From positions 21,924-85,923 of the forward strand of contig JAHWKM010000001.1 in NCBI GenBank assembly GCA_019347895.1: 64,000 bases of DNA, given 5' to 3'. The notes under the pieces were generated by a model, which worked only from the letters and a program-made list of their open reading frames with translations, ran no database searches and was not told the DNA's origin. The position numbers and the translations under genes were made by a program. Within the stretch, counting starts at the first letter, position 1, and every line of letters begins with the position of its first letter. Of this stretch, positions 10,129 through 55,538 are shown in pieces. The DNA comes from Candidatus Parcubacteria bacterium (lineage in GTDB: Bacteria > Patescibacteriota > Saccharimonadia > Saccharimonadales > 2-12-FULL-41-12).

Positions 10129-10281
10129 CAAACGTAAAATTTACTTGTTTAGACTTAACTTTTGATAGTATTAAGGTTTTCCGCTGGGAGTGAAAGTAAA
10201 CTACAAGCCGTGGTGCGTAGGTTGTGGAGGGTTTTCTGGTATAATCTAGTCTAAAGCTTAAGTAGAATTGCAATAGATAAA

Positions 10282-12710: not shown

Positions 12711-13394
12711 ATGACTGGAATACATAGCTTCAGAGCAAAAACATGGCTTCGACTGATTTTACCGGCAGTGATTTACAGCCTTCTTTTTGCTCTAATTGTT
12801 ATTTTTCCTTTGTACATCTTCCATATTTCGGAGATATCGCTTAGTTTGCAAAGCGCAACCTCAGTCTCTTTGCTCGGCTTTGCATTAATTGAGTTAATTA
12901 TCCTGGCCTTAGTTGTTTATTGGCTAAAAAAAGACGGCCGCTCCCTTAAAGATTTAGGCCTTGGCAAGCCGACTACAAGAAAAGCTTTAGCTTTGGGGGT
13001 GCTAGTTGGGCTTTTGTGGGCCGGGGGCATTGTTGCTGACCTTGGTTTTAAAGCCGAACAGCTATTGACTTTAGATCAATTTAAGCTCTGGGGGATACTC
13101 ACAGGGATAGTGATAGCATTTTCAGAAGAGGTAATTTTTAGAGGATTTTTAATCACCGAATTAAAGAGACTAAAGTATAACGTTTGGATCCAGCTACTAG
13201 TTTCTTCGTTGCTGTTTGCTTTTATACATGGTCCGACAGCGCCCTTCGCCTTTGTGCTTGGCATAATATTGGGTGGACTTTATATATTCAGTCGATACAG
13301 CCTAACACCCATAATAGTCGCCCACATACTAGTCATTCTTTTGGTCGAACCATATTTAGTCATGGAAAGTGTAGCAGAATTCTATAAATTTTAA
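12711..13394 (+). CDS. CPBP family intramembrane metalloprotease (CAAX protease / Abi family).
   Basis: Polytopic membrane protein with FSEEVIFRGF (the EExxxR motif) and the downstream FIHGP and HILV His motifs characteristic of CPBP proteases. Confidence 0.7.
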   Translation: MTGIHSFRAKTWLRLILPAVIYSLLFALIVIFPLYIFHISEISLSLQSATSVSLLGFALIELIILALVVYWLKKDGRSLKDLGLGKPTTRKALALGVLVGLLWAGGIVADLGFKAEQLLTLDQFKLWGILTGIVIAFSEEVIFRGFLITELKRLKYNVWIQLLVSSLLFAFIHGPTAPFAFVLGIILGGLYIFSRYSLTPIIVAHILVILLVEPYLVMESVAEFYKF

Positions 13395-13435: not shown

Positions 13436-14017
13436 TTGTTTATGAAAAAGAAATATTTAATTTTGGTGCTGGTGCTGGTTTTTTCAAGCCTGCCAGGTTT
13501 TGTTTCTGCCCAAGATGATCAGACCAATCCAGTTCGACTGGAACGCGAAAAACGCGTCAGCGAGCGGATTAGCCGCTTCAACGTAAAATTGTCAGACCAG
13601 CAGAAAAGCTCGTATAAAGCTAGCTGCAAAGGCGCCCAAACCAAGGTGTCGGCACACCTGGAAAATGCCAAACGATTTTCACAAAAACACGATAAAAAAT
13701 TCTTTGAGATCATCGAAAAAACCAATAAACTTGCCGAGAGACTAAAAGCCAAGGGACAGGACGTAGAAGCCGTTCAAGCAGCGGTGAACAACGCAGTTGA
13801 AACAAATGAAAAGCTCAAGGCAGCTTATGGGGACTACATTTTAGCGCTAAGCGACACATCGCAAATGGACTGTCAGTTAGATCCGGAAGGTTTCAGGGCC
13901 TCCATTGACGGAGCCAAACAAAAATTTGCCGAACTGAGAAAATTCCGCCAAGAAGTCCGCAAACTGATCAAACAAGATTTAGTAGTGGCCTTGCAGTCAA
14001 TTTTAGCCGAGAACTAA
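13436..14017 (+). CDS. Secreted hypothetical protein with a signal peptide and coiled-coil character.
   Basis: N-terminal signal-like LILVLVLVFSSLPGFVSAQ. The remainder is charged and helical. No recognisable family. Confidence 0.4.
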   Translation: MFMKKKYLILVLVLVFSSLPGFVSAQDDQTNPVRLEREKRVSERISRFNVKLSDQQKSSYKASCKGAQTKVSAHLENAKRFSQKHDKKFFEIIEKTNKLAERLKAKGQDVEAVQAAVNNAVETNEKLKAAYGDYILALSDTSQMDCQLDPEGFRASIDGAKQKFAELRKFRQEVRKLIKQDLVVALQSILAEN

Positions 14018-14018
14018 C

Positions 14019-14528
14019 ATGAAAGATGATATTAAAACTGAACCAAACAACCAACCGCCGCAGTTCAGGCAGCCGCTTTCTAGCCCGCCCAGAAATCTCG
14101 ACGGCAAAGTCCCGCCGGATTCGGTCAACCTAAATACCGTGCAGAGCCAATCTGGCAAGCCTGATCAAACCACGTTAAACCAGCAAGATAACCAAGAATT
14201 AAAACCACAAACTGATGAACAAAAACCAGATCAGCAAAATAAGCCGCCCTCGCCTGCAAAACCTAAAAAGAAACGCGGTATTTTGCCAATAGCCATTTCG
14301 ATTATTATTCTACTGGCGCTCAGCTCGCTGGCGGTTTATGCCGGCTTAATTAAAAAAGATGAATCCCAAAGAAATTTGGATAATACCGATGCATCTGCCC
14401 ACCAGCCGGCGATAAGCGACGCTGAAGACAGGCAGGCCTTGCAGCAAGTCATAGACCAAATTGATGAGCTGCCTGACGATAAAGATACTTCGGGCGACAA
14501 TTTGACTGATCAAAAACTGGGACTGTAA
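14019..14528 (+). CDS. Hypothetical Pro/Gln-rich protein with one TM helix.
   Basis: Its start is 1 nt after the upstream stop, so it is probably co-transcribed. It has a low-complexity PQ-rich N-terminus, the TM helix ILPIAISIIILLALSSLAVYAGLI and an acidic C-terminus. Confidence 0.4.
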   Translation: MKDDIKTEPNNQPPQFRQPLSSPPRNLDGKVPPDSVNLNTVQSQSGKPDQTTLNQQDNQELKPQTDEQKPDQQNKPPSPAKPKKKRGILPIAISIIILLALSSLAVYAGLIKKDESQRNLDNTDASAHQPAISDAEDRQALQQVIDQIDELPDDKDTSGDNLTDQKLGL

Positions 14529-14559
14529 GTAAAGTCGCCGGTTTTGGTATATTGTTAGC

Positions 14560-15156
14560 ATGAAAGATAAAGTAGCGGTGCTTAAAATCAACGACCCGAA
14601 GCTGGTTGAATTATTCAATAGCGGCAAAGTTGTCGTCATACCAACCGACACGGTGTATGGACTCAGCGTCAAAGCTAATAATGAAAAGGCGGTTGAAGCT
14701 CTATACGGCCTTAAAAATCGCGAATCCAAACCCGGAACCGTTATAGCCGCTTCGATTGACCAGCTGGTTGAGCTCGGTATAAAACGGCGTTACATAACGG
14801 CAGTTGCAGATTACTGGCCCGGTTCAATTAGCATCGAAATACCGCACGGCTTAGGCTACCTTAGCCAAGAAACCGGACGGCAAGCCTTCCGCGTAGTATC
14901 GGATCCTACGCTGCTAAAATTGCTGCAAGGTACAGGACCTCTTCTTACTACCAGTTGCAATTTGCCGGGCCAGCCGCCGGCCAACAACATCAATGAAGCC
15001 ATGATTTATTTTGGCGATAAAGTTGCGGCTTATGTAGACGGAGGCGATTTATCAGGCAGAGAACCATCGACTTTAATCCGTATTGTTGACGATGTAGTAG
15101 AGGTTATTCGCGAGGGAGCTGTTAAAATTGATGAATCGGGGAGAATAATAAATTGA
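14560..15156 (+). CDS. tsaC: L-threonylcarbamoyladenylate synthase (YrdC/Sua5 domain, t6A biosynthesis).
   Basis: VVVIPTDTVYGLSVKANNEKAVEALYGLKNRESKPGTVIAAS matches the YrdC-domain signature. Confidence 0.75.
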   Translation: MKDKVAVLKINDPKLVELFNSGKVVVIPTDTVYGLSVKANNEKAVEALYGLKNRESKPGTVIAASIDQLVELGIKRRYITAVADYWPGSISIEIPHGLGYLSQETGRQAFRVVSDPTLLKLLQGTGPLLTTSCNLPGQPPANNINEAMIYFGDKVAAYVDGGDLSGREPSTLIRIVDDVVEVIREGAVKIDESGRIIN

Positions 15157-15494
15157 ACGATTTAAAATTTGATGATTATCAAAAGCAAGCTATTAAAACC
15201 GCCATTAACCAAGAGGAAGATTTTATGACCCTTATGTACAGGACGCTTGGCTTGGTGGGAGAGTCCGGTGAGGTGGCAGAGAAAATTAAGAAAATTCTGC
15301 GGGATAAAGGTGGCAATATCTCTGATTCAGACAAGCAGGAAATAATTAAGGAAATGGGCGACGTGTTGTGGTATTTGCAGGCCTTGGCTGATTGTTTAAA
15401 GGTGCCGTTTAGCCAGGTGGCGCATATAAATTTAGACAAAATCCATAGCCGCAAAAGCCGCGGCGTGACCAAAGGCTCCGGCGATAACCGCTAA
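15153..15494 (+). CDS. MazG-like nucleotide pyrophosphohydrolase.
   Basis: LGLVGESGEVAE...EMGDVLWYLQALA is the EExGE...E..D helical MazG/NTP-PPase signature. It overlaps tsaC by 4 bp. Confidence 0.7.
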   Translation: MNDLKFDDYQKQAIKTAINQEEDFMTLMYRTLGLVGESGEVAEKIKKILRDKGGNISDSDKQEIIKEMGDVLWYLQALADCLKVPFSQVAHINLDKIHSRKSRGVTKGSGDNR

Positions 15495-15510
15495 TCTTTG
15501 CCCTTGCAAC

Positions 15511-15558
15511 AGCCAGTCTGCTTCTGGCGGAGCCAGAAACCCCACTGGCTTCTTGCGA
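15511..15558. repeat. Partial copy (tandem-hairpin module) of the intergenic repeat family, directly after the mazG-like stop codon. It probably acts as a terminator.
   Basis: cagccagtctgcttctggcggagccagaaaccccactggcttcttg is near-identical to 12399..12446. Confidence 0.6.
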
Positions 15559-15589
15559 AATTAAAAAACTATAGATAATATATAACACT

Positions 15590-15787
15590 ATGCCAAAACA
15601 TGAAGCAGATTCAAATCCAGATCAAAAACCAGAAGCCAGGCATCCCATAGATAGAGATAATCCTATTCCAGCTGTTCTTCCAATGGTCATTGAGCAAGCA
15701 GGACGAATAAAGCCAGGAAACGCCGAGCATATAGTTGAGGGTGCAGCTATGCTTGCAAGGGTTGTAAGTCTTGGCCCTAAGGAATAG
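15590..15787 (+). CDS. Small hypothetical protein (65 aa).
   Basis: ORF only. No family recognised. Confidence 0.25.
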   Translation: MPKHEADSNPDQKPEARHPIDRDNPIPAVLPMVIEQAGRIKPGNAEHIVEGAAMLARVVSLGPKE

Positions 15788-15815
15788 TTTTAGATATTTA
15801 CTGGCTTGCTACAAC

Positions 15816-17114
15816 TTACTGCTTACTGCTGCGAACGAAGTTCGCTCGGATCCACTCATCCAGGCTGCTGCCGCCGCCGCCGGATAAGCAAACTACTAAG
15901 TCGCCATTTTCTAAGTGTTTTTTGATATTTTGTTTTAGCTGCTGGTTAAGCTCAGCGGGCTGGGCAATTTCCGCGTTCGACATGTAGCTAATCAGCTCTT
16001 TGGCCTTGAGAATTTTTTGGCTGGGATCTTCGCGGGCTAGATAGCTCGGTACCCAATAAAGCTGTTTGACTCCTTTGAACAAGTCCTTATATTCTTCCTT
16101 TATAAAATGCTGGCGGCGGTTTGTCAGCGGTTCGTAGACCACAACCACACTATCCGAGTATTCCCCGGCCGTTTGCAGGCAGCCGGCTATCTTGGCCGGT
16201 GTGTGGGCGTAATCGCTGTACAAGTTGGCCGTAATCCGTTCAAAGCGGCGTGACACGCCGGGGAATTTTTTCATCATTTCAATTAGGTTTTCAATGGGTT
16301 CGCCGGTTAGTTTATGGGCGGCAGCGATTACCAAAAAGCCGTTTTTTCGGTTTACTTCGCCTCCAATGCTTAACGCGTTAAGCATTTTGTCGTCATCATC
16401 CAAAACCATGTATTTTTCATCGGTGTTTTCAATACCCAGTTTCTCTAAGTCGCCCAGCCAGAGCACCTTATCAGTTGATTGGGCTAAGAAATCCCTGAAG
16501 GCCTGGAGATAGCTTTGTTTGGTAGGAAAAACTTCATGATGATCATAGTCAACGCCGGAAATAATACTCAAATGAGGATGGAAAGCCAAAAAATTGCGGT
16601 CAAATTCGTCGCATTCGTAGATAAAATATTTAGAATCAGCTTCAAAATAACCCATCTCGCCAAATGATATTTTGGCGCCTACAGAGTAGCTTGGCCTCAT
16701 ACCGAGCCGCTTGAATAACCAGATCGCCATGGCCGTAGTGGTTGTTTTGCCGTGCGTTCCGGCAACGGCCACAAGTTTTTTATTGGACTGGCCAATAATT
16801 TTATTTAAAAATTCGTCGCGCTTGGTGGCTTTTATATTATTTTCCCGGGCAAAAACTAATTCCGGATGGTTTGGATTTTCAATTTTCACAGCCGACGAAT
16901 AAACTATCCAGTCGATCGGTTTTTTGCTATGGACACCCGCGATCTGTTTGCCGGTTTGACCGATTTGTATATCATCTATGCCATTTTTCTTAAGATATTC
17001 AATATATTCGGAGTTTTGCTTGTCTGAACCGGATACAGCGTAGCCTGCTTGGCGAGCCAGCATCGCTAGCGGTCCGATAGCGGTTCCGCCAATGCCGGAG
17101 AAATATATATGCAT
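15816..17114 (-). CDS. murC: Mur ligase family protein, most like UDP-N-acetylmuramate--L-alanine ligase (MurC). An Mpl-like ligase is possible.
   Basis: The N-terminal IYFSGIGGTAIGPLAMLARQAGYAVSGSD is the MurC/Mpl Rossmann start. GTHGKTTTTAM is the Mur ligase P-loop. 432 aa. Confidence 0.6.
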   Translation of the reverse strand: MHIYFSGIGGTAIGPLAMLARQAGYAVSGSDKQNSEYIEYLKKNGIDDIQIGQTGKQIAGVHSKKPIDWIVYSSAVKIENPNHPELVFARENNIKATKRDEFLNKIIGQSNKKLVAVAGTHGKTTTTAMAIWLFKRLGMRPSYSVGAKISFGEMGYFEADSKYFIYECDEFDRNFLAFHPHLSIISGVDYDHHEVFPTKQSYLQAFRDFLAQSTDKVLWLGDLEKLGIENTDEKYMVLDDDDKMLNALSIGGEVNRKNGFLVIAAAHKLTGEPIENLIEMMKKFPGVSRRFERITANLYSDYAHTPAKIAGCLQTAGEYSDSVVVVYEPLTNRRQHFIKEEYKDLFKGVKQLYWVPSYLAREDPSQKILKAKELISYMSNAEIAQPAELNQQLKQNIKKHLENGDLVVCLSGGGGSSLDEWIRANFVRSSKQ

Positions 17115-17283
17115 AATATTAGAGTAAAGAGTAAAGGTTAAAGAGTAAAGTTAATAATCTAAAAAAAGAAACTCCTAATAAATTATGTGACCCACGTGAA
17201 AGTTAAAAAATTTTTTATGGCTAAAAGTGCTTAACTTACGACTGAAACTTTTAGCTTTTATCTTTTGGCTTTAAACTAGTGTT

Positions 17284-17886
17284 ATGAACAAGCGCAAACT
17301 CCATCACCAATATAAAAAGGTCAGGGTGATTAAACCGTGGTATTTTTTAGCTGCCAGCCTGATTTTTCTAGCGGTTGGGGTATATGGCCTCAGGCAAAAC
17401 AACTTTGAAGCGCTTAAGCTAAGGGACGAAGTAATAAAAGCCGATGAGCAAAATGGCGATATAGAGGGCGCGCTCAGAGACCTTCGCCAGCATACTTACT
17501 CGCATATGAATGCCGAGCTCTCCAGCGGGCCTACTACCATCAAGCAGCCCATACAGCTTAAGAACCGCTATGAGAAGCTGGTGGCTGCCGACGCTAAGAA
17601 GGTTAAGGCCAAGAATGTACAAGTTCAAAAAACTGCTGAAAATATCTGCGGCCAGAGGTATCCGGCGGCGGGGTTCAATAGTTCCAGGGTGGCCTGCGTG
17701 GTCGACTATGTCGGGAAGAACGCAGCCACGGAAAGCAACATTCCCCCGGAATTATATAAATTCGATTTTGTCAGTCCGGCTTGGACGGCTGATAAAACCG
17801 GGCTGAGCCTTCTAGCGGCAGGCTTTTTATTTATGGTTTTTATATTGCGTCTGGCTGTTGGCTGGTGGTATAAATACGAACTGTAG
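17284..17886 (+). CDS. Hypothetical membrane protein with N- and C-terminal TM helices.
   Basis: 200 aa with a TM helix near residues 20-40 and another near the C-terminus. No family recognised. Confidence 0.4.
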   Translation: MNKRKLHHQYKKVRVIKPWYFLAASLIFLAVGVYGLRQNNFEALKLRDEVIKADEQNGDIEGALRDLRQHTYSHMNAELSSGPTTIKQPIQLKNRYEKLVAADAKKVKAKNVQVQKTAENICGQRYPAAGFNSSRVACVVDYVGKNAATESNIPPELYKFDFVSPAWTADKTGLSLLAAGFLFMVFILRLAVGWWYKYEL

Positions 17887-17896
17887 ATTGGGCTGA

Positions 17897-18622
17897 TTAG
17901 CGTTCGTTTGGTTCGGTGTTTGCCGGTGGATTGTCGGTTGTGTTATCGGGCGAGTTTTCATTTGGAGCAGCCGAACCCGAATCTTCAGTTGAGGATGGCT
18001 TTGATGATTCAGGGTTTGGATTGTTCTGCTGATTTTGCTGCTCACAATCCTGGCCGTTTGGATTTGCCTTTTTATACTCCGCGACAGCTTTAGCTACTTG
18101 CCCGTCATCTTTTAGATTTTCCCAAAATGTAATTTGAGACCTGTTAATAACCATACTATCTTGCGGACCGTGCAGCTCGCAACCTAGCTTTACCAGCGAA
18201 ACATCATTTTGCGAAGCTTGTGGTTCTTTTTGATCTGGCTGGACTTGTTGGTTAACCCTAAGATAGTAGATGTCCGACACGCTTAGAAAGTCTCTGTTTA
18301 ACTCGTTAATGTGGCCGAAGTAGACCTGCCCGTTATTTAAAAATACGGCTTGATATTTTGAAGGATCAACAAATCTTTCTTCCCGCGAGTCATTTTTGAA
18401 AAACACCAGCGATAGAAGTACCCCGACAAGGACAACCGTAACTGAAAAAAGCAGAAATACGTAGGTTACCTTTAAGATTCCGCCGGTTCTAAAGCGGCTT
18501 ATTCTGCCGCCCTTTTTTGTGTTGCCTGGGCCCGGATGCGACTGTTGCGGCGCCGAGGCCGGTTCATTATGATTCGTATTGACCTGCTGACTAGGCCGGA
18601 AGCTTCTATTGTTTAGGTCCAT
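17897..18622 (-). CDS. Hypothetical membrane-anchored protein with a low-complexity Q/N/P-rich C-terminus.
   Basis: 241 aa with one TM helix (VTYVFLLFSVTVVLVGVLLSLVFF) and a compositionally biased tail. Confidence 0.4.
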   Translation of the reverse strand: MDLNNRSFRPSQQVNTNHNEPASAPQQSHPGPGNTKKGGRISRFRTGGILKVTYVFLLFSVTVVLVGVLLSLVFFKNDSREERFVDPSKYQAVFLNNGQVYFGHINELNRDFLSVSDIYYLRVNQQVQPDQKEPQASQNDVSLVKLGCELHGPQDSMVINRSQITFWENLKDDGQVAKAVAEYKKANPNGQDCEQQNQQNNPNPESSKPSSTEDSGSAAPNENSPDNTTDNPPANTEPNER

Positions 18623-18914
18623 TTAAATTTTCCACCTCTGTTTTATTAATCTTTATACCATGTAGTTTAATGCATAAGCGTCTTTGTTTGCAAGGTTATT
18701 ATCAAAAACTTGTACAACAACTAAGTTGTAAAATGTACTTTTAAGGTGTTTTGGTTGATTCTATGGTGAGATTTTTATAACCTTTAACTTCGGTGATTGT
18801 CTATATCATCTAGTATGAAGGCCGGTAAAAGTCATCTTCCGGGGTTGACAACTAAAATCCCAAAGGAGTATCGTAAGGGTACCATTTAATCTAACAGAGG
18901 GAGAATATAGCAAA

Positions 18915-19112
18915 ATGGGATATAGCCATACTAATAGCAAGGGTGTGAAATACTACCTAAACTCAAAAGACGTTGTACTTCGCGGTGGAAAGAAGCAGAC
19001 TATCTACTACTTCTCAAAAGACGACCGTCCAGAGACATCTACTGATCTGCCAAGCGGCATGAGCGTCAACGAAAATCCACGCAACGGCTTCCTTACCGTT
19101 AAGCGCGGCTAA
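18915..19112 (+). CDS. Small hypothetical protein (65 aa) with its own RBS and a downstream rho-independent terminator.
   Basis: GGGAG lies 8 nt upstream of the ATG. The ORF is followed by a strong terminator at 19131..19165. Confidence 0.45.
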   Translation: MGYSHTNSKGVKYYLNSKDVVLRGGKKQTIYYFSKDDRPETSTDLPSGMSVNENPRNGFLTVKRG

Positions 19113-19130
19113 TTTAGCTATAAGTTAGAT

Positions 19131-19165
19131 AAAACCGGCCGGGTTCGTCCCGAGCCGGTTTTAAT
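19131..19165 (+). terminator. Rho-independent terminator.
   Basis: AACCGGCCGGG-TTCG-TCCCGAGCCGGTT forms a stem, followed by TTTAATTT. Confidence 0.6.
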
Positions 19166-19181
19166 TTGCTAAAATATAGAT

Positions 19182-19574
19182 ATGCAAGATTCAATTTTTA
19201 CCAAGATTATCAAAGGCGAGATACCTTGCCATAAGGTATATGAAGACCATAAAACTTTTGCGTTTTTAGATATTCACCCGAAACAACAAGGACACACTCT
19301 TGTTATTCCTAAAAAACAGGTAGAATTCGTCTGGGATCTCGATGAAGAGGATTACCATGCGGTTATGTCGACAGTTAAAAAGGTAGCTCTTAGGATCAGG
19401 AAGGCTATAGGCAGTAAATATGTTGGCGAGCTAATCGTTGGCGAAGAAGTACCTCATGCTCACGTCCACGTCTATCCGTTTAATACACTAGAGGAATCAC
19501 GCGATATTCCTGATCCGAATATTGAGCCAGACCACGAAGCATTAGCTGAGATGGCTAAGCTATTGGCTTTTTAG
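19182..19574 (+). CDS. HIT family hydrolase (histidine triad protein).
   Basis: The HAHVHVYP histidine triad HxHxHxx is present. 130 aa. Confidence 0.8.
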   Translation: MQDSIFTKIIKGEIPCHKVYEDHKTFAFLDIHPKQQGHTLVIPKKQVEFVWDLDEEDYHAVMSTVKKVALRIRKAIGSKYVGELIVGEEVPHAHVHVYPFNTLEESRDIPDPNIEPDHEALAEMAKLLAF

Positions 19575-19586
19575 CTAATAATCCAG

Positions 19587-20582
19587 ATGAATTTCCTAGA
19601 TAAACTACCAAGGCCATTTTTTGTTTTGGCGCCAATGGACGACGTGACCGACACGGTTTTTCGGCAAGTTATTGCCGATTTGGCGCCGGCAGACTTATAT
19701 TTTACGGAATTTGTAAATGTCGACGGGCTGCAAAGTCCGGGCCGGGCCAATCTTATTAAAAAACTTAAGTTTAACGAAAAAGAACAGCCGCTAATCGCCC
19801 AAATCTGGGGTCTAGAGCCAGAAAATTTTTATAAAACCGCGAGAGAGCTGGTCGAGATGGGATTTGCCGGCATTGACTTAAACTTCGGCTGTCCGCAAAA
19901 AAATGAAATCAAATGCGGTGCTTGCGCCGCTCTTATGAATAACCGGACGCTGGCTGGTGAAATCATAAAGGCAACTCAAGAAGGCGCATGGTCCGCTGGC
20001 CAGCGCACTCCTGTCAGTGTCAAAACCCGCTTGGGTTTTAGCGAAGTAGATTTTAGCTGGCAGGAGTTTTTACTGGGGCAAAAGCTTAACATGTTAAGCA
20101 TCCATGGCAGAACTAAGCGGGAAATGAGCAAAGTACCGGCGCATTGGGACGAGATAGGCCAAATTCGCCAGCTGCGCGACAAGATTTCGCCCGGAACGTT
20201 AATGGTTGGAAACGGCGACATTCTTAGCCGCCAGCAAGGTGAAGAATTAGCAGATAAATATGGATTAGACGGTATAATGATCGGCCGCGGTGTCTTCCAA
20301 AACCCCTTTATATTTTCCAGGGTTAAACCCTGGAAATGGGGGGAGTGGGATGCGGCAAGTAAAATTAAGCTGTACCAAAAGCATGTCGAGTTATTTCGGG
20401 ATACCTGGTCCGCTGGTCAGCGGAGCGAGAGGCCGATAGCAACTCTCAATAAATTTTGCAAAATTTATATCAACGGCTTTGACGGCGCCAAAGAAATGCG
20501 CGAAGATTTGATGCACTGCAAAAGCGCCGAGGAATTACTTTCAAAATTACAGGCGCATAAGTATAATCAAGCAGAAGTTTAA
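19587..20582 (+). CDS. dus: tRNA-dihydrouridine synthase.
   Basis: FFVLAPMDDVTDTVFRQV matches the Dus N-terminal signature, within a TIM-barrel FMN enzyme of 331 aa. Confidence 0.75.
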   Translation: MNFLDKLPRPFFVLAPMDDVTDTVFRQVIADLAPADLYFTEFVNVDGLQSPGRANLIKKLKFNEKEQPLIAQIWGLEPENFYKTARELVEMGFAGIDLNFGCPQKNEIKCGACAALMNNRTLAGEIIKATQEGAWSAGQRTPVSVKTRLGFSEVDFSWQEFLLGQKLNMLSIHGRTKREMSKVPAHWDEIGQIRQLRDKISPGTLMVGNGDILSRQQGEELADKYGLDGIMIGRGVFQNPFIFSRVKPWKWGEWDAASKIKLYQKHVELFRDTWSAGQRSERPIATLNKFCKIYINGFDGAKEMREDLMHCKSAEELLSKLQAHKYNQAEV

Positions 20583-20592
20583 GGAAATATTT

Positions 20593-21270
20593 ATGTCGAA
20601 TTTAATGACGGAAGCCGAAGCCTTGCAAGCCTTAAAAGACAAAGGCTCATTATATGCGCCCGAAGATGGTTATCACTTCAAAGGTGCCAGCGGCAAGCAT
20701 ATCAGCGGATATTGCAACATTGATCCGGTTTTACCCTTTACGGACTTGCTATCCAAAATGACCGAAGCAATAATAGAAAATTTTATAGATGACGGAGTAG
20801 AAACCGTGATCGCGCCGGCTACAGGCGGAATTCCTTTGACCCAGTGGGGGTCTCATCATTTGCAGAAAATAAATGGCGGCGAAGTACTGGGGGTTTGGGC
20901 AGATAAAGCCAAACCCGAGGGTTTTGCAATCGAGCGGGCTGGTTTTGCCGAAGCCATTAAGGGCCAAAAAGTGTTAGTGCTTGAGGACGTTGTCAATACT
21001 ATGTACTCTATAAAGCAGGTTATCGAACTGGTGCGCGAACACGGAGGTGATGTTGTTGGCCTGGGATCGGTGGTTGCTAACCGCGGCGTCAGCGCCGAAG
21101 CCCTGGGGGTTAATAAATTCTTTAACTTAGCGACCTTTGCTTATGACTCTTGGAAAGAAGCGGAGTGCGAGCTGTGCGCCCGTAAAGTTCCGATGGTAAT
21201 TGATATAGGCCACGGTGATAAATTCGCTGCAGCACACCCGGATTATCCGACCGTAAAAGTTTTAAAATAA
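20593..21270 (+). CDS. Phosphoribosyltransferase-fold protein (type I PRTase-like, OPRT-like).
   Basis: KVLVLEDVVNTMYSIKQVIELV sits at the PRPP-binding loop position of type I PRTases. 225 aa. The exact substrate is unknown. Confidence 0.45.
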   Translation: MSNLMTEAEALQALKDKGSLYAPEDGYHFKGASGKHISGYCNIDPVLPFTDLLSKMTEAIIENFIDDGVETVIAPATGGIPLTQWGSHHLQKINGGEVLGVWADKAKPEGFAIERAGFAEAIKGQKVLVLEDVVNTMYSIKQVIELVREHGGDVVGLGSVVANRGVSAEALGVNKFFNLATFAYDSWKEAECELCARKVPMVIDIGHGDKFAAAHPDYPTVKVLK

Positions 21271-47552: not shown

Positions 47553-47577
47553 AAAGAATCCATAATGCTTATGCTTA

Positions 47578-47640
47578 GTAGCGGGGGCCGGACAGCGGAC
47601 TTCGTCCTTCTTCGCTCCGGCGTGCTCGGAATAAATTCCT
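47578..47640 (-). repeat. Diverged partial copy of the element resembling the tRNA-fMet 3' end. It is the candidate outermost att site of the island.
   Basis: gtagcgggggcCgg... followed by tccttcttcgctccggcgtgctcggaataaa. It is related to 48125..48263 and 52730..52868. Confidence 0.5.
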
Positions 47641-48067
47641 AGCTTCGGGCTTCAGCCCCTGAAATTGTTCCAAATACTTGGTAAGACTCCCCGTTATCGT
47701 TGTTTATGCCTGCAATTATATGTTGCAATTCAACAGCGCTGTCTTCGTAGACGCCTTGCAGCATTAATTCAAAGTATGCTGCTGTATTTCTATTGCCAGC
47801 CGTTTTTTCCTCGGCTTCTCCCATAGCTCTTTTTACCAGATCAGGGTCAAAACCATGGTATATTCTGTCCGAATAATTATAGTGAGTTCCGGGGAGGTCT
47901 TGAATGCCTCTTCTCGGGAGTACTAAACCTTGAGCCAAGAAAATAGTTCTACCGCCAACAGACCTAGTAAATCTTTCGTCGGTAAAGTGGGGGTAGAGCA
48001 TATGCGAAGGAATTTCCTGATCCTTTAAGCGTACTGGTTCAAGCTCACCAAATGCTGTAAATGCCAT
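47639..48067 (-). CDS. Hypothetical protein (142 aa).
   Basis: ORF lying directly downstream, on the minus strand, of repeat copy 48125..48263. Confidence 0.4.
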   Translation of the reverse strand: MAFTAFGELEPVRLKDQEIPSHMLYPHFTDERFTRSVGGRTIFLAQGLVLPRRGIQDLPGTHYNYSDRIYHGFDPDLVKRAMGEAEEKTAGNRNTAAYFELMLQGVYEDSAVELQHIIAGINNDNGESYQVFGTISGAEARS

Positions 48068-48124
48068 AGTTATAATAAACTATCATATTGTTAAGATTAT
48101 GCCAACAACAGCAATGGTTCAATC

Positions 48125-48263
48125 GTAGCGGGGGCAGGGCATCGCGCGCCTTTGGCGCACTCCTTCTTGCGATGCTCGGCAATAAAATGTAAACACTTTA
48201 TTGTCCTGTGCTTCTCATTCGCCGAACCTCCGGTTCGTGTCCAGCCCCGCTGCTATCGAAGAT
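48125..48263 (-). repeat. 139-bp element, copy 1. Its first 14 nt (gtagcgggggcagg) are identical to the 3' end of tRNA-fMet. It is a candidate attR or integrative-element end.
   Basis: It is near-identical (about 4 mismatches) to 52730..52868. It contains the hairpins GCGCC-AAA-GGCGC and CGAACC-TCC-GGTTCG. Confidence 0.7.
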
Positions 48264-48287
48264 GTGAAATTTCGGTAAAACAAGTTA

Positions 48288-48656
48288 TTAACTTCTGCTT
48301 TGTACATACAGGCTGACGAAAAGTACCAAAATTCCGGAAAGTGCAAATATTCCAGAAGGAATCAACCAAATTAACCCACCCAATCCTTCGTAGAGGAATA
48401 TTGCCCCAAAGCAAAGGGCTGCTAGCAGTAATAAAACTAATGATAGCTTAAACGGTTTGCTCGTCGGCTTGCTAATACCCGGGGTACCATTTTTGAATGT
48501 CGTAATATGGTAGACTGGAATTAATAATATCCCTAATATAATCAAGCTTACACCTGGCCACCGGACCGCTCCTCCTCCGTCATTATCCAACAACACATAT
48601 AAACCCCATCCCGCTACGATCAGTATAGGTGAAAAGATTTTTATTATCATGTCCAC
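48288..48656 (-). CDS. Small 4-TM membrane protein (122 aa).
   Basis: ORF, strongly hydrophobic. It lies inside the AT-rich island. Confidence 0.4.
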   Translation of the reverse strand: MDMIIKIFSPILIVAGWGLYVLLDNDGGGAVRWPGVSLIILGILLIPVYHITTFKNGTPGISKPTSKPFKLSLVLLLLAALCFGAIFLYEGLGGLIWLIPSGIFALSGILVLFVSLYVQSRS

Positions 48657-49002
48657 ACTATAGCAAAAGAGGTCTTAACAACCTCAACTCGGGCAATAAT
48701 TTGCTCCGGGTTTCTGGCTGTCCGAACTACCATCTGGCAGTTCTCCCCTGCGACCTTTCTAGCGTCGCAGATTCGAGCCGTGGCTCCGACAAAGAAAAAA
48801 GCTCTGGAATGGGTCCAAAGCTTTTTTCTTGGTAGACATGACTTTGAAGAGTTGATTCATATTAAAAAAGAACTGTTGTCAATGCGGCAGATAGTGAATG
48901 AAGCACAGAGCTTAACGAAGGTTATAACATGAGCAACAGTACTAGAACCGTGCACTTAAATAAAGTAAGGCTTTACATTAATTACTCTGATAGAATACCT
49001 GT

Positions 49003-49575
49003 ATGAGTAAGTTAGATTTAAACAGTAAAGATATATTATTGTTGCTTATCTACACAAAAATAAACAACGAAGAAAATGGATCAATTTCAGGTAGAACAAG
49101 GATTATGAAGTTATTGTTTTTATTTAAGAAGGAAGTCTTCAAAAAATTTAAAAACGATGGCCAAGATTTAGATAAACTTAAATTCGATGCATGGAATTAC
49201 GGACCATTTTCAAAAGAAATCTATGATGATATAGAATTTCTTTCTAATATTGGTTTTTTAAGTGTAAGAATAAGTGAAGAAGATACGTCAATTGAGGAGG
49301 CAGCTGAATACAATCATTGGGAAGATGGATTTAGTGACTCTAATGATGTAGAAGAATTTACACAAGAGGAATTCTCGCTTACTGATCAAGGTAATAAATA
49401 CGTGGAAATAGAACTATGGAATAAGTTAAGCGAAGCTCAAAAAAGTGTGCTGGGCGAGTTCAAACAAAGCTTCGGAACTGTTCCATTGTATGCACTTCTT
49501 GAATACGTTTATAAAAAGTACCCCAAATACACAACCGAGTCTAAAATTAAAAATAGAGTACTTGGTAGGTCATGA
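49003..49575 (+). CDS. Panacea-domain (DUF4065) protein, SocA/PanA antitoxin-like.
   Basis: ILLLLIYTKINNEENGSISGRTRIMKLLFLFKKEVFKKF...KLKFDAWNYGPFSKEIYDDIEFL fits the DUF4065 core (hydrophobic KLLYL helix ... F.AW.YGP... Y). It is the first gene of a four-gene overlapping operon in an AT-rich island. Confidence 0.6.
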   Translation: MSKLDLNSKDILLLLIYTKINNEENGSISGRTRIMKLLFLFKKEVFKKFKNDGQDLDKLKFDAWNYGPFSKEIYDDIEFLSNIGFLSVRISEEDTSIEEAAEYNHWEDGFSDSNDVEEFTQEEFSLTDQGNKYVEIELWNKLSEAQKSVLGEFKQSFGTVPLYALLEYVYKKYPKYTTESKIKNRVLGRS

Positions 49576-50081
49576 ATCCGACGGCTGGTGAGGTTATAAC
49601 AGGGCTGTGGTGGATTCCCTTTCTTTTTCAAAGCATACCTCTTCTAGCATTTCTTTTTAGCCAGTTTTTAATAAAAGATCAAGATTATAGCGATAAAGTG
49701 GGATTATTTATTAATGCCAATAAAGCAAATCATGCAAAAGCACTAAAACGATTTGTTGTAACTGAAATAGATGGCGATATAGAGGAGAAGTGCCTAGAGT
49801 TTATCAATGAAAGTAGCCGTCGTTTTAAGCTTACGGCCGCGCTAAGCTCCTATGGGAAAATCTACACAAAATTAGCAAGTATATCCTTAAGGCTATTAAT
49901 AGCTTCAAGTGTTATATTCATTGCTGGAGTTGTAGCAGTTCTATTAAACGATAAAGCAGAAATATGGGCATTAAGCGTTAATACTGTTCTAGCAATTTCA
50001 AATATTACGATAATTTATGCTATGAGGCATTATCTCGTAAAGCTTCAGTCCCTGGCGGGTAATGAGGATATCAGTACATGA
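49572..50081 (+). CDS. Membrane protein with N-terminal and C-terminal TM helices flanking a soluble region. It is a candidate toxin or effector partner of the Panacea gene.
   Basis: Its start overlaps the upstream stop (ATGA). The TM helices are GLWWIPFLFQSIPLLAFLFSQFLI and LLIASSVIFIAGVVAVLL...VLAISNITIIYA. No family recognised. Confidence 0.45.
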   Translation: MNPTAGEVITGLWWIPFLFQSIPLLAFLFSQFLIKDQDYSDKVGLFINANKANHAKALKRFVVTEIDGDIEEKCLEFINESSRRFKLTAALSSYGKIYTKLASISLRLLIASSVIFIAGVVAVLLNDKAEIWALSVNTVLAISNITIIYAMRHYLVKLQSLAGNEDIST

Positions 50082-50476
50082 GTGAATATCAACTACAGCA
50101 ATGGTTTGCTGTCTATTTGCAGAGTCAAGGATTTACTGTTTATCAAGAAGTACCTTTTTTATCTCGATCAATTGATATTGTTGCGGAAAAAGATGACGTT
50201 ATTTTAGCCTATGAACTAAAACTTAACGATTGGCGTAAGGCAGTAGCGCAATCAAGCGACCATCTACATGGAGTCGATAGGTCATATGTGTGCATGCCCT
50301 TAAAGTCAAAGATCAATGAAGAATTGATTCACTTAATTCAGGCTAATGGACTTGGGCTTGTTGTTTTTAATATAGAAGCTCAGACTGTCGAGGAAATTAT
50401 TCCTGCCCTTGATTCCGGGTCAGTTTGGCAACCTGCGAGAAAGTGGTTAACTACGGGCATGGAGTTTGCGTTATGA
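50078..50476 (+). CDS. Small PD-(D/E)xK nuclease-fold-like protein (132 aa).
   Basis: It is coupled to the upstream gene by an ATGA overlap. The core ...EVPFLSRSIDIVAEKDDVILAYELKL... carries a D-x(n)-E-x-K arrangement (IDIV ... ELK) typical of restriction-endonuclease-like folds. Confidence 0.4.
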   Translation: MSEYQLQQWFAVYLQSQGFTVYQEVPFLSRSIDIVAEKDDVILAYELKLNDWRKAVAQSSDHLHGVDRSYVCMPLKSKINEELIHLIQANGLGLVVFNIEAQTVEEIIPALDSGSVWQPARKWLTTGMEFAL

Positions 50477-51792
50477 GCGTTACACATTATTTACGATTTG
50501 GAACACACGCTGAGAGCAAGTACTTTCTTGGTAACGGTAAAGACATGTACGATTCGATTATTTTTAATGGTAATATGGTCGCCTATACACAATCAGCAAT
50601 TGCAGCATTCATCATAAATACTCACGAAAAAGGTTTCCTAATTGATCCACAGACACATGCATTTCAGCATGATCTAAGCTACTTAAAAAGTAAAAACTCA
50701 AAAGGCGAAGAGAAGATTAAGCAATCTATTCAGCAATTGGCAGATATGCTGGGGAATCCTGTATTAAGTAAGCTTGAATCGAGCCTCCCAGTAACACCTT
50801 CTGACTTTGGAGAGCAGCCGGTCATCGATGCCTTTGCGGAAAAAGTTATTAAGTTTCAAAGCAACATTATAGATACTGTTAAAGAACAAGATGATTGGAA
50901 GTATCTTAAATTTAAACTTAAGGACCAGAAGTCTTCAGAGCCTGCACCTTCTGGTCTTATAGCACCTTATTTCTATATGAGCGAAGTTTCATACGATAGA
51001 TGGCTAGATATAAATGTAAAGCTTATAAATGCTTCAATCGCTCATAGTGGAGAATCTGAACTCATGGCACAACTTGTCATTGCTAAAGATGTTTTAACTA
51101 GCCCTGAAGATCCTATAAGTAAAATAATCGAAGAGTATGGAAACAGTGAGGCAAAAGCTGTTTTAATATGGGTTGATCAATTTAACACTGTAAATGCTTC
51201 CAAAACGGAATTAGCAGCTTTTAGGAGACTTGCAGAAGGCCTAAAGTCTAAGGGCAAAAGAGTAATCGACTTATATGGCGGTTACTTCTCTGTTCTTTTA
51301 AGTAAGAAAGAAATTCTTGATGGTGTCTGTCATGGACTTGAATATGGTGAATCTAGGGCCGTAAAACCAGTAGGAGGCGGTATACCTATGGCTAAATATT
51401 ATTTCTACCCACTTCATTACAGGATGAGATTCACAGATTTTCTTACGGTTCATAAAGCTATGGGTTGGGGAGTAAGTAAGAAATCATTTAATTCAAAGGT
51501 TTGCTCTTGCGAGAATTGCGAAGATGGAGATATCCAAAAGTTCGGCATAACAACACCAGTTAGAATAAAACGAAAATCGGGAATTGTAACACTAAACTAT
51601 CCTACCCAAGAGACTAAAGACCGTAGTCTTATTCACTATTTGAATTGCAAAAGACGAGAATTCAAAACTGTTCAGTCAAAAAGTATTGACGAGCTAAAGA
51701 AAGAACTAATCGACTCCATCAATACATACGAGAATGTGCTAGGTATAGAGTCAGTTTCCCATCTAAATAGATGGAACGATACTTTGAGCTAA
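50473..51792 (+). CDS. Large protein of unknown family (439 aa from the ATG at 50473) with a C-terminal Cys cluster (CSCENCEDGD).
   Basis: The ATG at 50473 overlaps the upstream stop (ATGA). The ORF track's earlier in-frame start at 50425 would overlap the upstream gene by 52 nt. No recognisable motifs beyond the Cys cluster. Confidence 0.45.
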   Translation: MSVTHYLRFGTHAESKYFLGNGKDMYDSIIFNGNMVAYTQSAIAAFIINTHEKGFLIDPQTHAFQHDLSYLKSKNSKGEEKIKQSIQQLADMLGNPVLSKLESSLPVTPSDFGEQPVIDAFAEKVIKFQSNIIDTVKEQDDWKYLKFKLKDQKSSEPAPSGLIAPYFYMSEVSYDRWLDINVKLINASIAHSGESELMAQLVIAKDVLTSPEDPISKIIEEYGNSEAKAVLIWVDQFNTVNASKTELAAFRRLAEGLKSKGKRVIDLYGGYFSVLLSKKEILDGVCHGLEYGESRAVKPVGGGIPMAKYYFYPLHYRMRFTDFLTVHKAMGWGVSKKSFNSKVCSCENCEDGDIQKFGITTPVRIKRKSGIVTLNYPTQETKDRSLIHYLNCKRREFKTVQSKSIDELKKELIDSINTYENVLGIESVSHLNRWNDTLS

Positions 51793-51819
51793 GATTTAAA
51801 AATCTATTTTGATTACTAA

Positions 51820-52182
51820 CTAGGTTTTCGCTTCGTTTGTTCCTAAGATGATGTATTTTGAAAGTGACCTAATTCCCAAATATAAAAGATACAGAGTAAG
51901 ACCGGACAGTATTATAGTTGCAATTTCTTCCGTCAAGACATCGCTTGAATCACAAATTTGTGTTCCTTGATCAAGATTATATCTAAGCCGCTTTTGTGCC
52001 ATTGAAGTGCCAGTGGTTCGAGCGGGGTCGTTATCCGCATTACATTCACTAATACTTCTAACACTGCTATCCAATATAAATACAAACACTATGATCGCTA
52101 AAAGAATATAAATTACTTTTATAAATCGCCACTTGGCATTTTCTTCTAATTTCTTAGTATGGTTTTTCTTCGGCTTGTTCAT
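51820..52182 (-). CDS. Small 2-TM membrane protein (120 aa) with a Cys-containing loop.
   Basis: ORF with the TM helices VIYILLAIIVFVFIL and IILSGLTLYLLYLGI. It lies in the AT-rich island. Confidence 0.4.
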   Translation of the reverse strand: MNKPKKNHTKKLEENAKWRFIKVIYILLAIIVFVFILDSSVRSISECNADNDPARTTGTSMAQKRLRYNLDQGTQICDSSDVLTEEIATIILSGLTLYLLYLGIRSLSKYIILGTNEAKT

Positions 52183-52224
52183 GTGTTTAGTTGCCTTTTA
52201 AATTTATTAAAAACTGTGACTAAT

Positions 52225-52653
52225 TTATCGTATTTTACGAAGTAAAGAAGCAAAGACATTAGCTGTGCGTTTTCTTTTAACATCATATCCAAAATGCCCA
52301 AGCACCATAGCTGCTGCTGCCTCTTGCTTATCAACAAGTGCTTCTGCTTGTTCTTGTTGAAACGCTGATCCGTGAATTTCGTTGTGTCGCTTGTATATTA
52401 ATCCGTCGCCGACCAATCCCCTTACCAAGGAAGTTGCGAGTTTAGGTCCACCCGAGTTATCAGTTAGGGTAATTGGGCTAGTGATAACCCTTCCTACTGG
52501 TATCATCTCACCAGTCTCTGGCTCATCGTATGCTACTAGAATAGTATCTACTACACCTTCTTGGTGCATTCTTTGCACAGGAGGTATAACAGGGTAGAAT
52601 TTAGCTTCGACCCCAGCAGTGTTTGCTAAGCCTAAAGTATCGGCACCAATCAT
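52225..52653 (-). CDS. Hypothetical protein (142 aa).
   Basis: ORF directly downstream (minus strand) of repeat copy 52730..52868. Confidence 0.4.
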   Translation of the reverse strand: MIGADTLGLANTAGVEAKFYPVIPPVQRMHQEGVVDTILVAYDEPETGEMIPVGRVITSPITLTDNSGGPKLATSLVRGLVGDGLIYKRHNEIHGSAFQQEQAEALVDKQEAAAAMVLGHFGYDVKRKRTANVFASLLRKIR

Positions 52654-52729
52654 ATTATGATTATAACATTATTGATGCTATATGTAAATTAACTTGTAAG
52701 TAAAATAATTTTACTGCCTTTTCCACGGA

Positions 52730-52868
52730 GTAGCGGGGGCAGGGCATCGCGTGCCTTTGGCGCACTCCTTCTTGCGATGCTCGGCAATAAAATGTAAACA
52801 CTTTATTGTCCTGCGCTTCTCATTCGCCGAACCTCCGGTTCGTGGCCAGCCTCGCTGCTATCGAAGAT
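52730..52868 (-). repeat. 139-bp element, copy 2. Its first 14 nt are identical to the 3' end of tRNA-fMet. It is a candidate proximal att site.
   Basis: It is near-identical to 48125..48263. It lies 205 bp downstream of the tRNA-fMet 3' end on the same strand. Confidence 0.7.
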
Positions 52869-53073
52869 ATGCAATTAAAACAATCGAAAAAATAGATGGG
52901 CAGGAATCCGTCGTCGGCTAAAGCCTCCTTTGGGATATGCCGCTGTCTTTCTCGAAGCAAGCTTCTGCGAGAGCCAGCCTGTTATCGAACCTGTGGTTCG
53001 CTGCGCTCTCGCATCAGGTTCGAGTCTGGCTCCGTACATGAAAAAAGCCCCTAAAATATAGGGACTCTTTTCA

Positions 53074-53148
53074 TGGTAGCGGGGGCAGGACTCGAACCTG
53101 CGACCTTGTGGTTATGAGCCACACGAGCTGCCGCTGCTCCACCCCGCG
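53074..53148 (-). tRNA. Initiator tRNA-fMet (CAU).
   Basis: The reverse complement reads CGCGGGGTGGAGCAGCGGCAGCTCGTGTGGCTCATAACCACAAGGTCGCAGGTTCGAGTCCTGCCCCCGCTACCA. The 5' CGCGGGGUGGAGCAGC is identical to the E. coli tRNAfMet start. Position 1:72 is unpaired (C1-U72), as in initiator tRNAs. The anticodon loop is CTCATAA and the CCA is encoded. Confidence 0.85.
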
Positions 53149-53270
53149 TCGTCGTCACAGCTCAGCAACTTTCTTGCCAAACTAAGACGTGACTTATAGT
53201 TTGGCAGCCATGTTTACTGGCTGCTCCTCTCAATTTTACAAACAGCTGTGCTTGGTTTGCAAAATTGGTT
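53149..53270 (-). promoter_or_regulatory. Promoter plus roughly 75-nt leader of tRNA-fMet. It is copy A of a duplicated module of about 120 bp shared with tRNA-Met.
   Basis: On the minus strand, TTGCAA (53257..53262) is followed 18 nt later by TAAAAT (53233..53238). The leader contains the hairpins CAGCCA-GTAAACA-TGGCTG and CCAAACTATAAG...CTTAGTTTGG. It is about 95% identical to 55347..55466. Confidence 0.6.
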
Positions 53271-54518: not shown

Positions 54519-55145
54519 TTGCAGCTAATGAGTGTTATTCAATCGCTCTGGTATTATTGTCTTATGGTAGATAAACATGAAATCGTAGGCCAGCACGTTT
54601 CTACATCGCTCGTGTATGGCAAGGACCTAAATCCCCAGGATTTGGGAACGATAAATCTTAATAGGAAGATTGAATTTAATTCAGAACCTTTCCAACCTAC
54701 TCCAGATAATGAGAACTGGGATAAACCCTACTTTATGGTAAAAGATGGCGATGAATTGCTAGCTTTTGGACGTTTACACTCAGTTGGTGTTGAACTTCAG
54801 GGTATGCCGAGTGAAATTTTAGGTGTTGCGACCATTATTTCTATTCATAAAAGCGAGGGTCATGGCAGAACATTGATGGAATACATGAGGCAACACATCG
54901 AAGAAACAGGCATGACGGCTATTGGATTTTGTGGTCAACACAATTCGGAATTTTATAGGAAATGTGGTTTCTCGATTCTTCCAAAAGGTACACATCGATT
55001 CACATTTCTGAATGATAAAGGCGAGATAGCAAAGCCGCACTATCCAGATAGTGATGTTCTGTATATTGACGGAAATGACCACTTAATTGAAACGCTAGTC
55101 GCAAATCCGACAGAGAGTATTACCGCGTACAGACCCGCTTGGTAG
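54519..55145 (+). CDS. GNAT family N-acetyltransferase. The probable start is at the internal ATG at 54564 (MVDKHE...).
   Basis: GVATIISIHKSEGHGRTLMEYMRQHIEETGMTAI...FYRKCGF is the GNAT motif A / acetyl-CoA-binding region (Q/RxxGxG/A) with a downstream FYxKxGF. Confidence 0.65.
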   Translation: MQLMSVIQSLWYYCLMVDKHEIVGQHVSTSLVYGKDLNPQDLGTINLNRKIEFNSEPFQPTPDNENWDKPYFMVKDGDELLAFGRLHSVGVELQGMPSEILGVATIISIHKSEGHGRTLMEYMRQHIEETGMTAIGFCGQHNSEFYRKCGFSILPKGTHRFTFLNDKGEIAKPHYPDSDVLYIDGNDHLIETLVANPTESITAYRPAW

Positions 55146-55346: not shown

Positions 55347-55466
55347 GTCGTCACAGCTCAGCAACTTTCTTGGCAAACTAAGACGTAACTTATAGTTTGC
55401 CAGCCATGTTTGCTGACTGCTCCTCTCAATTTTACAAACAGCTGTGCTTGGTTTGCAAAATTGGTT
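55347..55466 (-). promoter_or_regulatory. Copy B of the duplicated tRNA promoter-leader module, upstream of tRNA-Met.
   Basis: It is about 95% identical to 53149..53270, including the -35, -10 and leader hairpins. Confidence 0.6.
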
Positions 55467-55538
55467 TGTGAAAACAGAGGTAAATAATAGCATATTTTAT
55501 GATCGTTATCTATGGCTTGCACTTGATATACTAAAGCA

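Follow-up and report, generated by a model that had tools for sequence, protein, structure and literature searches.

Genomic islands and integrative mobilisable elements that tyrosine integrases insert at tRNA genes (T-loop sublocation) have an intact tRNA at one end and direct repeats of its 3' end at the other, with an identity block running from the T-loop to the CCA, foreign cargo that varies between relatives and tandem occupancy of the site. Staphylococcal cassette chromosome mec (SCCmec) and pseudo-SCC elements are inserted at the 3' end of rlmH (orfX) by the large serine recombinases CcrAB; the gene end is restored, short direct repeats are left, elements stack in tandem and recombinase-less members are helped in trans. 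Integron arrays and clusters of attC sites lacking integrases (CALINs) hold short recombinase-less cargo units between imperfect palindromes of ~60-150 bp, whose structure is conserved over sequence, and integrative mobile elements exploiting Xer (IMEX) of the CTX-phi type carry two inverted imperfect copies of the host target, ~90 nt apart, that fold to recreate the target duplex. Here we analysed a 64-kb window of a Saccharibacteria (Patescibacteria) chromosome, to which positions refer unless another genome is named, and in which 5.5 kb separate the stop codon of a PAS histidine kinase from the initiator tRNA-Met gene (tRNA-fMet). This interval is probably a nested or tandem array of small elements that were inserted site-specifically at the tRNA T-loop and are now without a recombinase. 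An insertion hotspot at a tRNA 3' end is of a known kind; the structured module that recurs in this one is unusual.

The features of tRNA-targeting islands listed above recur at this locus, the differing cargo being that of one relative (L011). The locus differs from such islands in that neither it nor its intact relatives carry a tyrosine integrase, several array members have no cargo, and the attachment (att) region is a structured module of 140-185 bp that includes terminators of its own along with the target in inverted copy. As in SCCmec, a serine recombinase is associated with insertion at the 3' end of a conserved gene with restoration and short repeats, tandem stacking and recombinase-less members, although here not a protein gene but a tRNA T-loop would be the target, the repeats sit in a much larger conserved module, and the putative link between serine recombinase and repeat is drawn from two other genomes (L031 and L032). 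The likeness to integron arrays and CALINs lies in the recombinase-less cargo units between structured repeats, and that to CTX-phi-type elements, which integrate as folded single strands with inverted target copies, in the module's inverted copy of the tRNA end. Unlike either, the module has no R''/R' cores (RYYYAAC / GTTRRRY), no IntI and a multi-branched fold, its target is a tRNA instead of attI or dif, and single-strand recombination is here an analogy.

Direct repeats of the tRNA-fMet 3' end

The tRNA-fMet gene was called at full length with its CCA (60.9 bits) by Rfam and ARAGORN, carries a 1:72 mismatch (C1/U72) and is directly adjoined by a terminator and a module (Table 1). Its last 18 nt (53074-53091 on the plus strand, TGGTAGCGGGGGCAGGAC) form the repeated segment, named O. 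An initial annotation of the window had reported same-orientation copies of this minus-strand tRNA end at 52730, 48125 and, diverged, 47578. These were confirmed: besides the tRNA itself at 53076, exact matches to the 14-mer GTAGCGGGGGCAGG, which is the tRNA 3' end in reverse complement, lie at 52730 and 48125, and a copy with a single mismatch (13/14 nt) lies at 47578, four matches being reached in 0/100 shuffles. All three repeats that the annotation read as attR scars were thus found, but there are more copies than three: a fourth direct copy of O, decayed, lies at 52893-52905 (TAGATGGGCAGGA), and a 6-nt relic of the tRNA end (TGGTAG) at 48830-48835. Decayed copies are also present in inverted orientation. 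Two, on the plus strand, cover the last ~31 nt of the tRNA (53012-53038 and 48764-48791) and match tRNA-fMet above each of eight other tRNAs (p<0.001 vs shuffles), and shorter ones lie within both long repeats (52846-52860 and 48241-48255). The long repeat itself spans 147 nt at 96% identity (48125-48271 vs 52730-52876), or 139 nt with 4 differences (97.1%), the latter in keeping with the two 139-bp copies and roughly four differences annotated initially.

The distal copy at 47578 begins 25 nt past the kinase stop (47552), in line with the left boundary proposed within 30 bp of that codon. The trailer AAGCATAAGC follows this copy in both the window and a related genome, L011, and also follows the elongator tRNA-Met genes of both genomes. 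Because this trailer is common to the elongator genes, the distal copy appears to be the original end of the tRNA, displaced together with the flank native to it. An independent Logan assembly from another run (L001) contains the same kinase, the third copy, ORF142a and the start of the second copy, its sequence ending within the repeat, which shows that the repeat exists and is no artefact of the window's assembly. Composition likewise agreed with the annotated AT-richness of 48264-52729, where GC content is 37.2% compared with 44.4% for the window, below every non-overlapping 4.5-kb window, and the tetranucleotide distance is the largest among the 4.5-kb windows.

The ~120 nt upstream of tRNA-fMet (53149-53270) are ~95% identical to the same region of the elongator tRNA-Met (55347-55470), 2 kb away and also on the minus strand. 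This duplicated stretch comprises a promoter (TTGCAA-18-TAAAAT) and a hairpin-containing leader of ~90 nt, a promoter-leader cassette that the tRNA-fMet of L011 does not share. A GNAT acetyltransferase gene (54519-55145, plus strand) lies between the two tRNA genes.

Module architecture

The array is built from a module of 140-185 bp. It begins with O and a small hairpin (H1) with CCTTCTT after it; a hairpin that varies comes next, then the T-stem 5' half in copy, the tRNA end in inverted copy and, last, a bidirectional terminator. O copies the last 14-18 nt of the target tRNA, and the inverted, decaying copy its last ~31 nt. The bidirectional terminator, a hairpin between an A-run and a T-run, stands after each of the long inverted copies, and beyond it comes the tRNA end or a relic of it; terminator T1 belongs to this recurrent junction of inverted copy, terminator and O. 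The same junction, with 6-9 nt of O and then cargo, was found in three genomes (the window, L011 and L032), and the AT-rich cargo of the window starts directly to the right of T2 and its TGGTAGA. Of the ~40-50-bp attP/attB sites with a central dinucleotide at which a large serine recombinase would act, the sequence shows only the junction position (O|AGCGGAC). The 139-bp stretch, annotated simply as sequence distal to an attR, is a variant of this conserved, structured module and includes an inverted copy of the tRNA end.

Table 1. Coordinates of the tRNA, modules, terminators and open reading frames (ORFs) between the histidine kinase and tRNA-fMet
Feature	Position	Strand	Description
Native tRNA trailer	47554..47577		Between kinase stop and distal copy; ..GCTTATGCTT on plus strand, AAGCATAAGC on tRNA strand
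Module W3 (short, distal)	47578..47661		O with one mismatch, H1 AGCGGACTTCGTCCTTCTTCGC, hairpins GGAATAAATTCC and AGCTTCGGGCT, CAGCCCCTG
ORF142a	47639..48067	-	Rare protein, two homologues only
Module W2 (type A)	48125..48271		Second 147-bp repeat, 96% identical to W1
ORF122	48288..48656	-	Predicted membrane protein, no family match
Partial module W5	48690..48791		Inverted decayed copy GTCGCAGATTCGAGCCGTGGCTCCGACA (48764-48791); without O and H1
Bidirectional terminator T2	48789..48836		Arms 48789-48808 / 48814-48833, then TGGTAGA (48830-48836), relic of tRNA end
ORF190	49003..49575	+	Panacea (SocA-like antitoxin) domain; portable cargo gene 1
ORF169	49572..50081	+	Membrane protein; portable cargo gene 2
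ORF132	50078..50476	+	Weak YraN-like (PD-(D/E)xK) match; portable cargo gene 3
ORF439	50473..51792	+	TIM barrel, TGT/DpdA superfamily; conserved CxCxxC...H motif; portable cargo gene 4
ORF120	51820..52182	-	Predicted membrane protein, no family match; AT-rich part
ORF142b	52225..52653	-	No family match
Module W1 (type A)	52730..52876		One of two 147-bp repeats
Module W4 (type B)	52888..53038		Decayed O 52893-52905; hairpin GGC-TAAA-GCC; inverted copy 53012-53038
Terminator hairpin T1	53040..53073		Between tRNA and first module; A-run/T-run flanks, T6 on tRNA strand; terminator-like 53049-53063
Initiator tRNA-Met(CAT), tRNA-fMet	53074..53148	-	ARAGORN and Rfam; intact, CCA encoded

In W1 these parts are seen as O (14 nt), a GTGCC-TTT-GGCGC hairpin with CTCCTTCTT, an extended hairpin of AT pairs, CGAACC-TCC-GGTTCG and, at 52846-52860, the inverted copy CCAGCCTCGCTGCTA. 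Variants of H1 and of H2 occur in different combinations from copy to copy, which makes the modules mosaics. The W4 hairpin (CTTTCTCGAAG..CTTCTGCGAGAG) is shared with the L011 module L011a (31 nt, 93.5%), and the first 38 nt of W3 match L011a at 97% identity. In the 139-nt unit, O pairs with the inverted copy to give a closed structure around three hairpins, and W2 folds with z-scores of -4.4 on the minus and -3.7 on the plus strand; most units other than W1 and W2 reach -0.5 to -2.4 against shuffles, and W3 retains the same helices through other sequences. When wobble pairs were used to look for a functional strand, the duplex between O and the inverted copy was more stable on the plus strand in 8/8 units, and another helix showed the reverse bias. 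As a sign of the functional strand the plus-strand bias was discarded, being explained by C-to-T decay of the C-rich segment against a fixed partner. H1 with CCTTCTT scores as a weak plus-strand terminator, and this predicted activity may be enough to explain the pair.

Known RNAs and repeat classes were considered for the module and rejected. Rfam (E<=10) returned only the tRNA and noise, and ARAGORN gave no tRNA or tmRNA call in any module, which ruled out tmRNA, two-piece tmRNA, YrlA and other known RNAs; promoter prediction found none ahead of any module on either strand. Integron attC sites do not fit the module ends (GTAGCGG... and ...CGCTGCTA / ...CCGACCA), which have none of the cores named above, nor its multi-branched fold. 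The ends resemble inverted repeats as in miniature inverted-repeat transposable elements, but copies stand only beside tRNA 3' ends and none is dispersed. No module was detected away from tRNA 3' ends in the rest of the window or in ~250 kb of other Saccharibacteria loci, which within this scope speaks against the alternative, raised initially, that the 139-bp element is a dispersed repeat. Pattern scans of IMG/VR for modules gave nothing, or two chance matches inside a high-GC phage gene, and BLAST against phage and plasmid collections gave no module match; these searches therefore yield no evidence for a phage attP.

Related modules in other genomes

Homologues of the kinase are named Saccharibacteria, Saccharimonadales or Patescibacteria, the proteins of the window are deposited at NCBI under a 'Candidatus Parcubacteria bacterium' MAG, and a scan of the genome collection with the histidine kinase returned distant PAS/kinase matches only and no close relative. 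L011 (GCA_040384045.1) is the only relative that keeps the neighbourhood from Crp and kinase to tRNA-fMet, its kinase being 71% identical to that of the window. Four modules lie at its tRNA-fMet, and copies of O bound a stretch of 1.6 kb there. The tRNA gene (14827-14901) is preceded by a terminator and a complete cargo-free module (14643-14790), next to which O occurs a second time, with an interior unlike the first, before a terminator, a partial module and one ORF (206 aa); a TGGTAGAG relic, a terminator and a distal module (13236-13365) form the far end. The inverted copy in L011a best matches its cognate tRNA (p=0.004). No gene of the L011 cargo is common to the window. The comparison with relatives proposed in the initial annotation thus gave no empty site, but did give a different cargo between the same kind of repeats; in the other relatives the synteny with the kinase is lost, and five further contexts of kinase homologues (P0002, P0006, P0007, P0009 and P0012) had neither a nearby tRNA-fMet nor modules.

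A strict pattern search of metagenomes retrieved a single locus, the contig L010, with an fMet-type module between two terminators. The module adjoins an intron-containing tRNA-Thr, and on direct reading a decayed copy of the tRNA-Thr end apparently lies ~240 nt away. This tRNA-Thr(TGT) (294-591, minus strand) is split by a 223-nt intron in the anticodon loop, is found by ARAGORN with the intron search only, and is adjoined by an HNH-type ORF.

A portable four-gene cargo and serine recombinases

Four consecutive plus-strand genes of the window, whose products are a protein with a Panacea domain, a membrane protein, one resembling PD-(D/E)xK proteins and one resembling TGT/DpdA, recur in L031, L032 and L033. 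In L031 (Saccharimonadales) all four keep their order and lie at 8383-11143, with 67% DNA identity over 2.8 kb; beyond them come a 573-aa Resolvase-domain protein, CBASS-like genes and another recombinase. L032 and L033 have two more ORFs after the four genes, and next a large serine recombinase interrupted by a frameshift, then a terminator and tRNA-Glu; the frameshifted recombinase of L032 abuts the tRNA. A protein with Resolvase and Recombinase domains, which a large serine recombinase would have, is accordingly present in L032 and L031 and absent from the window, and serine recombinases are the only recombinases seen with this cargo and junction (L031 and L032).

L032 also links the cargo to the module. 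The last 18 nt of its tRNA-Glu have an exact repeat 7.3 kb away, and a tRNA-Glu-specific module bounds the 7.3-kb island. In both tRNA-Glu and tRNA-fMet the identity block is 18 nt long and ends two bases into the T-loop, and it continues with the same H1, as AGCGGACTTTGTCC in L032 and as AGCGGACTTCGTCC in the window and L011. After H1, L032 has a second hairpin and then CACCCGC-TGC-GCGGGTTCGGTTCTCACAGAGAACTAACCA, in which the tRNA-Glu 3' region is present in inverted and decayed form, with tRNA-Glu as best match (p=0.011); a terminator, the 9-nt relic TGGTGACCC and the cargo follow. Because the tRNA-Glu junction repeats the fMet layout with Glu-derived parts, the architecture of the module is general, the tRNA-derived parts following the target tRNA and H1 being common to all.

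The left edge of the L031 island carries the TGGTGACCC relic (7843-7851) after a hairpin. Directly after its four-gene module, at 13785-21174, CBASS-like genes (SMODS, bacterial HORMA, AAA and CARF/Card1-like) and an SMC-like ATPase stand between two serine recombinase genes and make the region a defence island.

Origin of the array

Under site-specific insertion, an element would enter the tRNA gene at a single T-loop position that lies 18 nt from the encoded CCA end, bringing with it the tRNA's last 18 nt and a terminator, so that the old end would come to lie beyond the insert, at its far side. For the element family, the whole 140-185-bp module would be the att region. Later elements could then target not just the tRNA but also resident modules, duplicating the module around the new insert; the 96%-identical 147-bp pair W1/W2 around ~4.6 kb would exist because a related element recombined with the resident module. 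Loss of cargo would leave cargo-free modules beside the tRNA, such as W4 and L011a. The recombinase of the array would most likely be a large serine recombinase, now lost from the locus or acting in trans. The initial annotation had proposed integrative-element remnants from more than one event at the tRNA-fMet 3' end, a view borne out by the native trailer at the distal copy, the L011 cargo and the portable core; its choice of a tyrosine integrase was not supported, since the homologous islands that have a recombinase (n = 2) carry serine recombinases.

Several observations weigh against this origin by site-specific insertion. As the annotation had stated of integrases, the window has no match to a recombinase family (Pfam), neither in the 8 ORFs of the interval nor in 10 large flanking ORFs (39.9-63.2 kb). 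In L011 no recombinase lies within 10 kb, the sole candidate being an rve gene of IS3 type across the tRNA from the array. Neither an empty site nor a circular form was seen in any of the data. The link between serine recombinases and the module comes from one island (L032) and from L031, which has no tRNA, and to our knowledge large serine recombinases neither need nor leave repeats of 14-18 nt. H1 pairing is kept, on direct reading, through four different stems (GGAC/GTCC, GGGC/GCCC, GCGCC/GGCGC and GGC/GCC), and such variation is not expected of a sequence-specific protein site on double-stranded DNA. Every junction retains or has regenerated a 31-nt inverted target copy, a feature that plays no part in classical att sites. 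The two homologues of ORF142a are not flanked by modules, and only four genomes in the data obtained carry modules at all.

That each repeat is instead the attR of a tRNA-targeting tyrosine integrase whose gene has since been deleted appears unlikely. Repeats of the tRNA 3' end were confirmed in the window and in L032, and an intact tRNA, direct repeats of its 3' end and an identity block ending in the T-loop are reportedly the signature of tyrosine integrases of the T-loop sublocation. However, Phage_integrase had no match in the interval, its flanks, L011 or the intact homologous islands, the last of which carry Resolvase/Recombinase-domain proteins, and the identity block is without the T-stem 5' half or T-loop, both of which a tyrosine site overlapping the T-loop would be expected to keep. 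An origin without any site-specific recombination, through local duplication, palindrome extension at terminators by template switching, and homologous recombination after natural transformation with the tRNA and modules as homology anchors, is likewise improbable. The 147-bp W1/W2 repeat is long enough for a RecA-type crossover, the succession of inverted copy, terminator and tRNA end is a long quasi-palindrome centred on the hairpin, and H1 and H2 variants have been reassorted; yet two different tRNAs, in different genomes, share the junction position to the nucleotide (18 nt, followed by AGCGGACTT), the recombinase-bearing island of L032 is bounded by an exact repeat of 18 nt, and the same cargo stands beside recombinase genes in two other genomes.

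Two further readings assign the module itself a function. It is very unlikely that the modules encode a folded small RNA resembling a tRNA, or act in cis as RNA punctuation for tRNA-processing enzymes, with the closing helix mimicking the acceptor/T stack of tRNA-fMet and the array consisting of RNA genes interspersed with ordinary ones. The closed multi-branch fold of the modules, pairing of H1 and the second hairpin maintained with different sequences, a tRNA-strand version in L010 and L011 that ends ...CCCCCGCUACCA before a hairpin with a T-run, and the 38-nt stretch that is 97% identical between genomes whose kinases are 71% identical would all suit an RNA. Against this, the modules have no Rfam family, ARAGORN call or promoter, most units bar W1 and W2 fold weakly, C-to-T decay of the C-rich inverted copy explains the plus-strand pairing advantage, and O, the T-stem piece and the inverted copy change with the tRNA (Glu vs fMet), which fits a DNA copy of the target. 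We also regard it as highly improbable that the module is a target-matched recombination device rather than a scar, namely a folded single-stranded att site (attC- or CTX-phi-like) or a guide-type RNA that directs a trans-acting recombinase to the copied tRNA. In that case a single strand could form the duplex of the tRNA gene anew by folding, and the structure would branch at the T-loop. The module does hold the target end both directly (O and the T-stem piece, split exactly at the crossover point) and as an uninterrupted inverted copy, its target-specific parts switch between fMet and Glu with H1 constant, and the window's elements are without a recombinase gene of their own. Such a device could suit naturally competent Patescibacteria that import single-stranded DNA.

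Mobile DNA of Patescibacteria (the candidate phyla radiation) is poorly described, and this locus and its relatives define a tRNA T-loop insertion hotspot with a searchable signature, namely the last 18 nt of a tRNA followed by AGCGGACTTYGTCC, in the fMet form GTAGCGGGGGCMGGACAGCGG. This signature could be used to map gene flux in these reduced genomes, including that of defence-type cargo such as the TGT/DpdA-like four-gene module. If the associated serine recombinases do act at tRNA T-loops, the range of targets usually ascribed to that class widens, and the inverted target copy in the module raises the possibility of folded-strand or target-matched recombination.

Genes of the interval and neighbouring observations

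The genes of the AT-rich segment (48264-52729) had initially been described as wholly lineage-unknown. Several indeed have no family match, but a Panacea domain (ORF190, which also weakly matches a candidate defence family), a TGT/DpdA-like fold (ORF439) and a weak YraN-like match (ORF132) were recognized. ORF439 (439 aa) went unrecognized by Pfam, NCBIfam, PHROGs and PADLOC; it has the TIM barrel and C-terminal CxCxxC...H zinc subdomain of the superfamily, and its 399 homologues span many phyla. Judged by these domains, the four-gene core probably encodes a defence or modification system.

In L011, an IS3-type transposase (HTH and rve_3; 15089-16011) lies directly upstream of tRNA-fMet, on the side opposite the module array. 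ORF142a and ORF142b, though of equal length, proved unrelated. ORF142b has a near-consensus promoter (TTTACA-17-TATAAT with a TG extension, 52688-52660), and its mRNA is probably leaderless, because this predicted promoter ends 6 nt ahead of the ATG. The closest homologue of ORF142a, on contig L025 (187-3593), is followed by RadC, an NYN-domain protein and a PIF1-type helicase, and four Logan contigs all begin 186 nt upstream of this homologue, which suggests a repeat or element boundary at that point.

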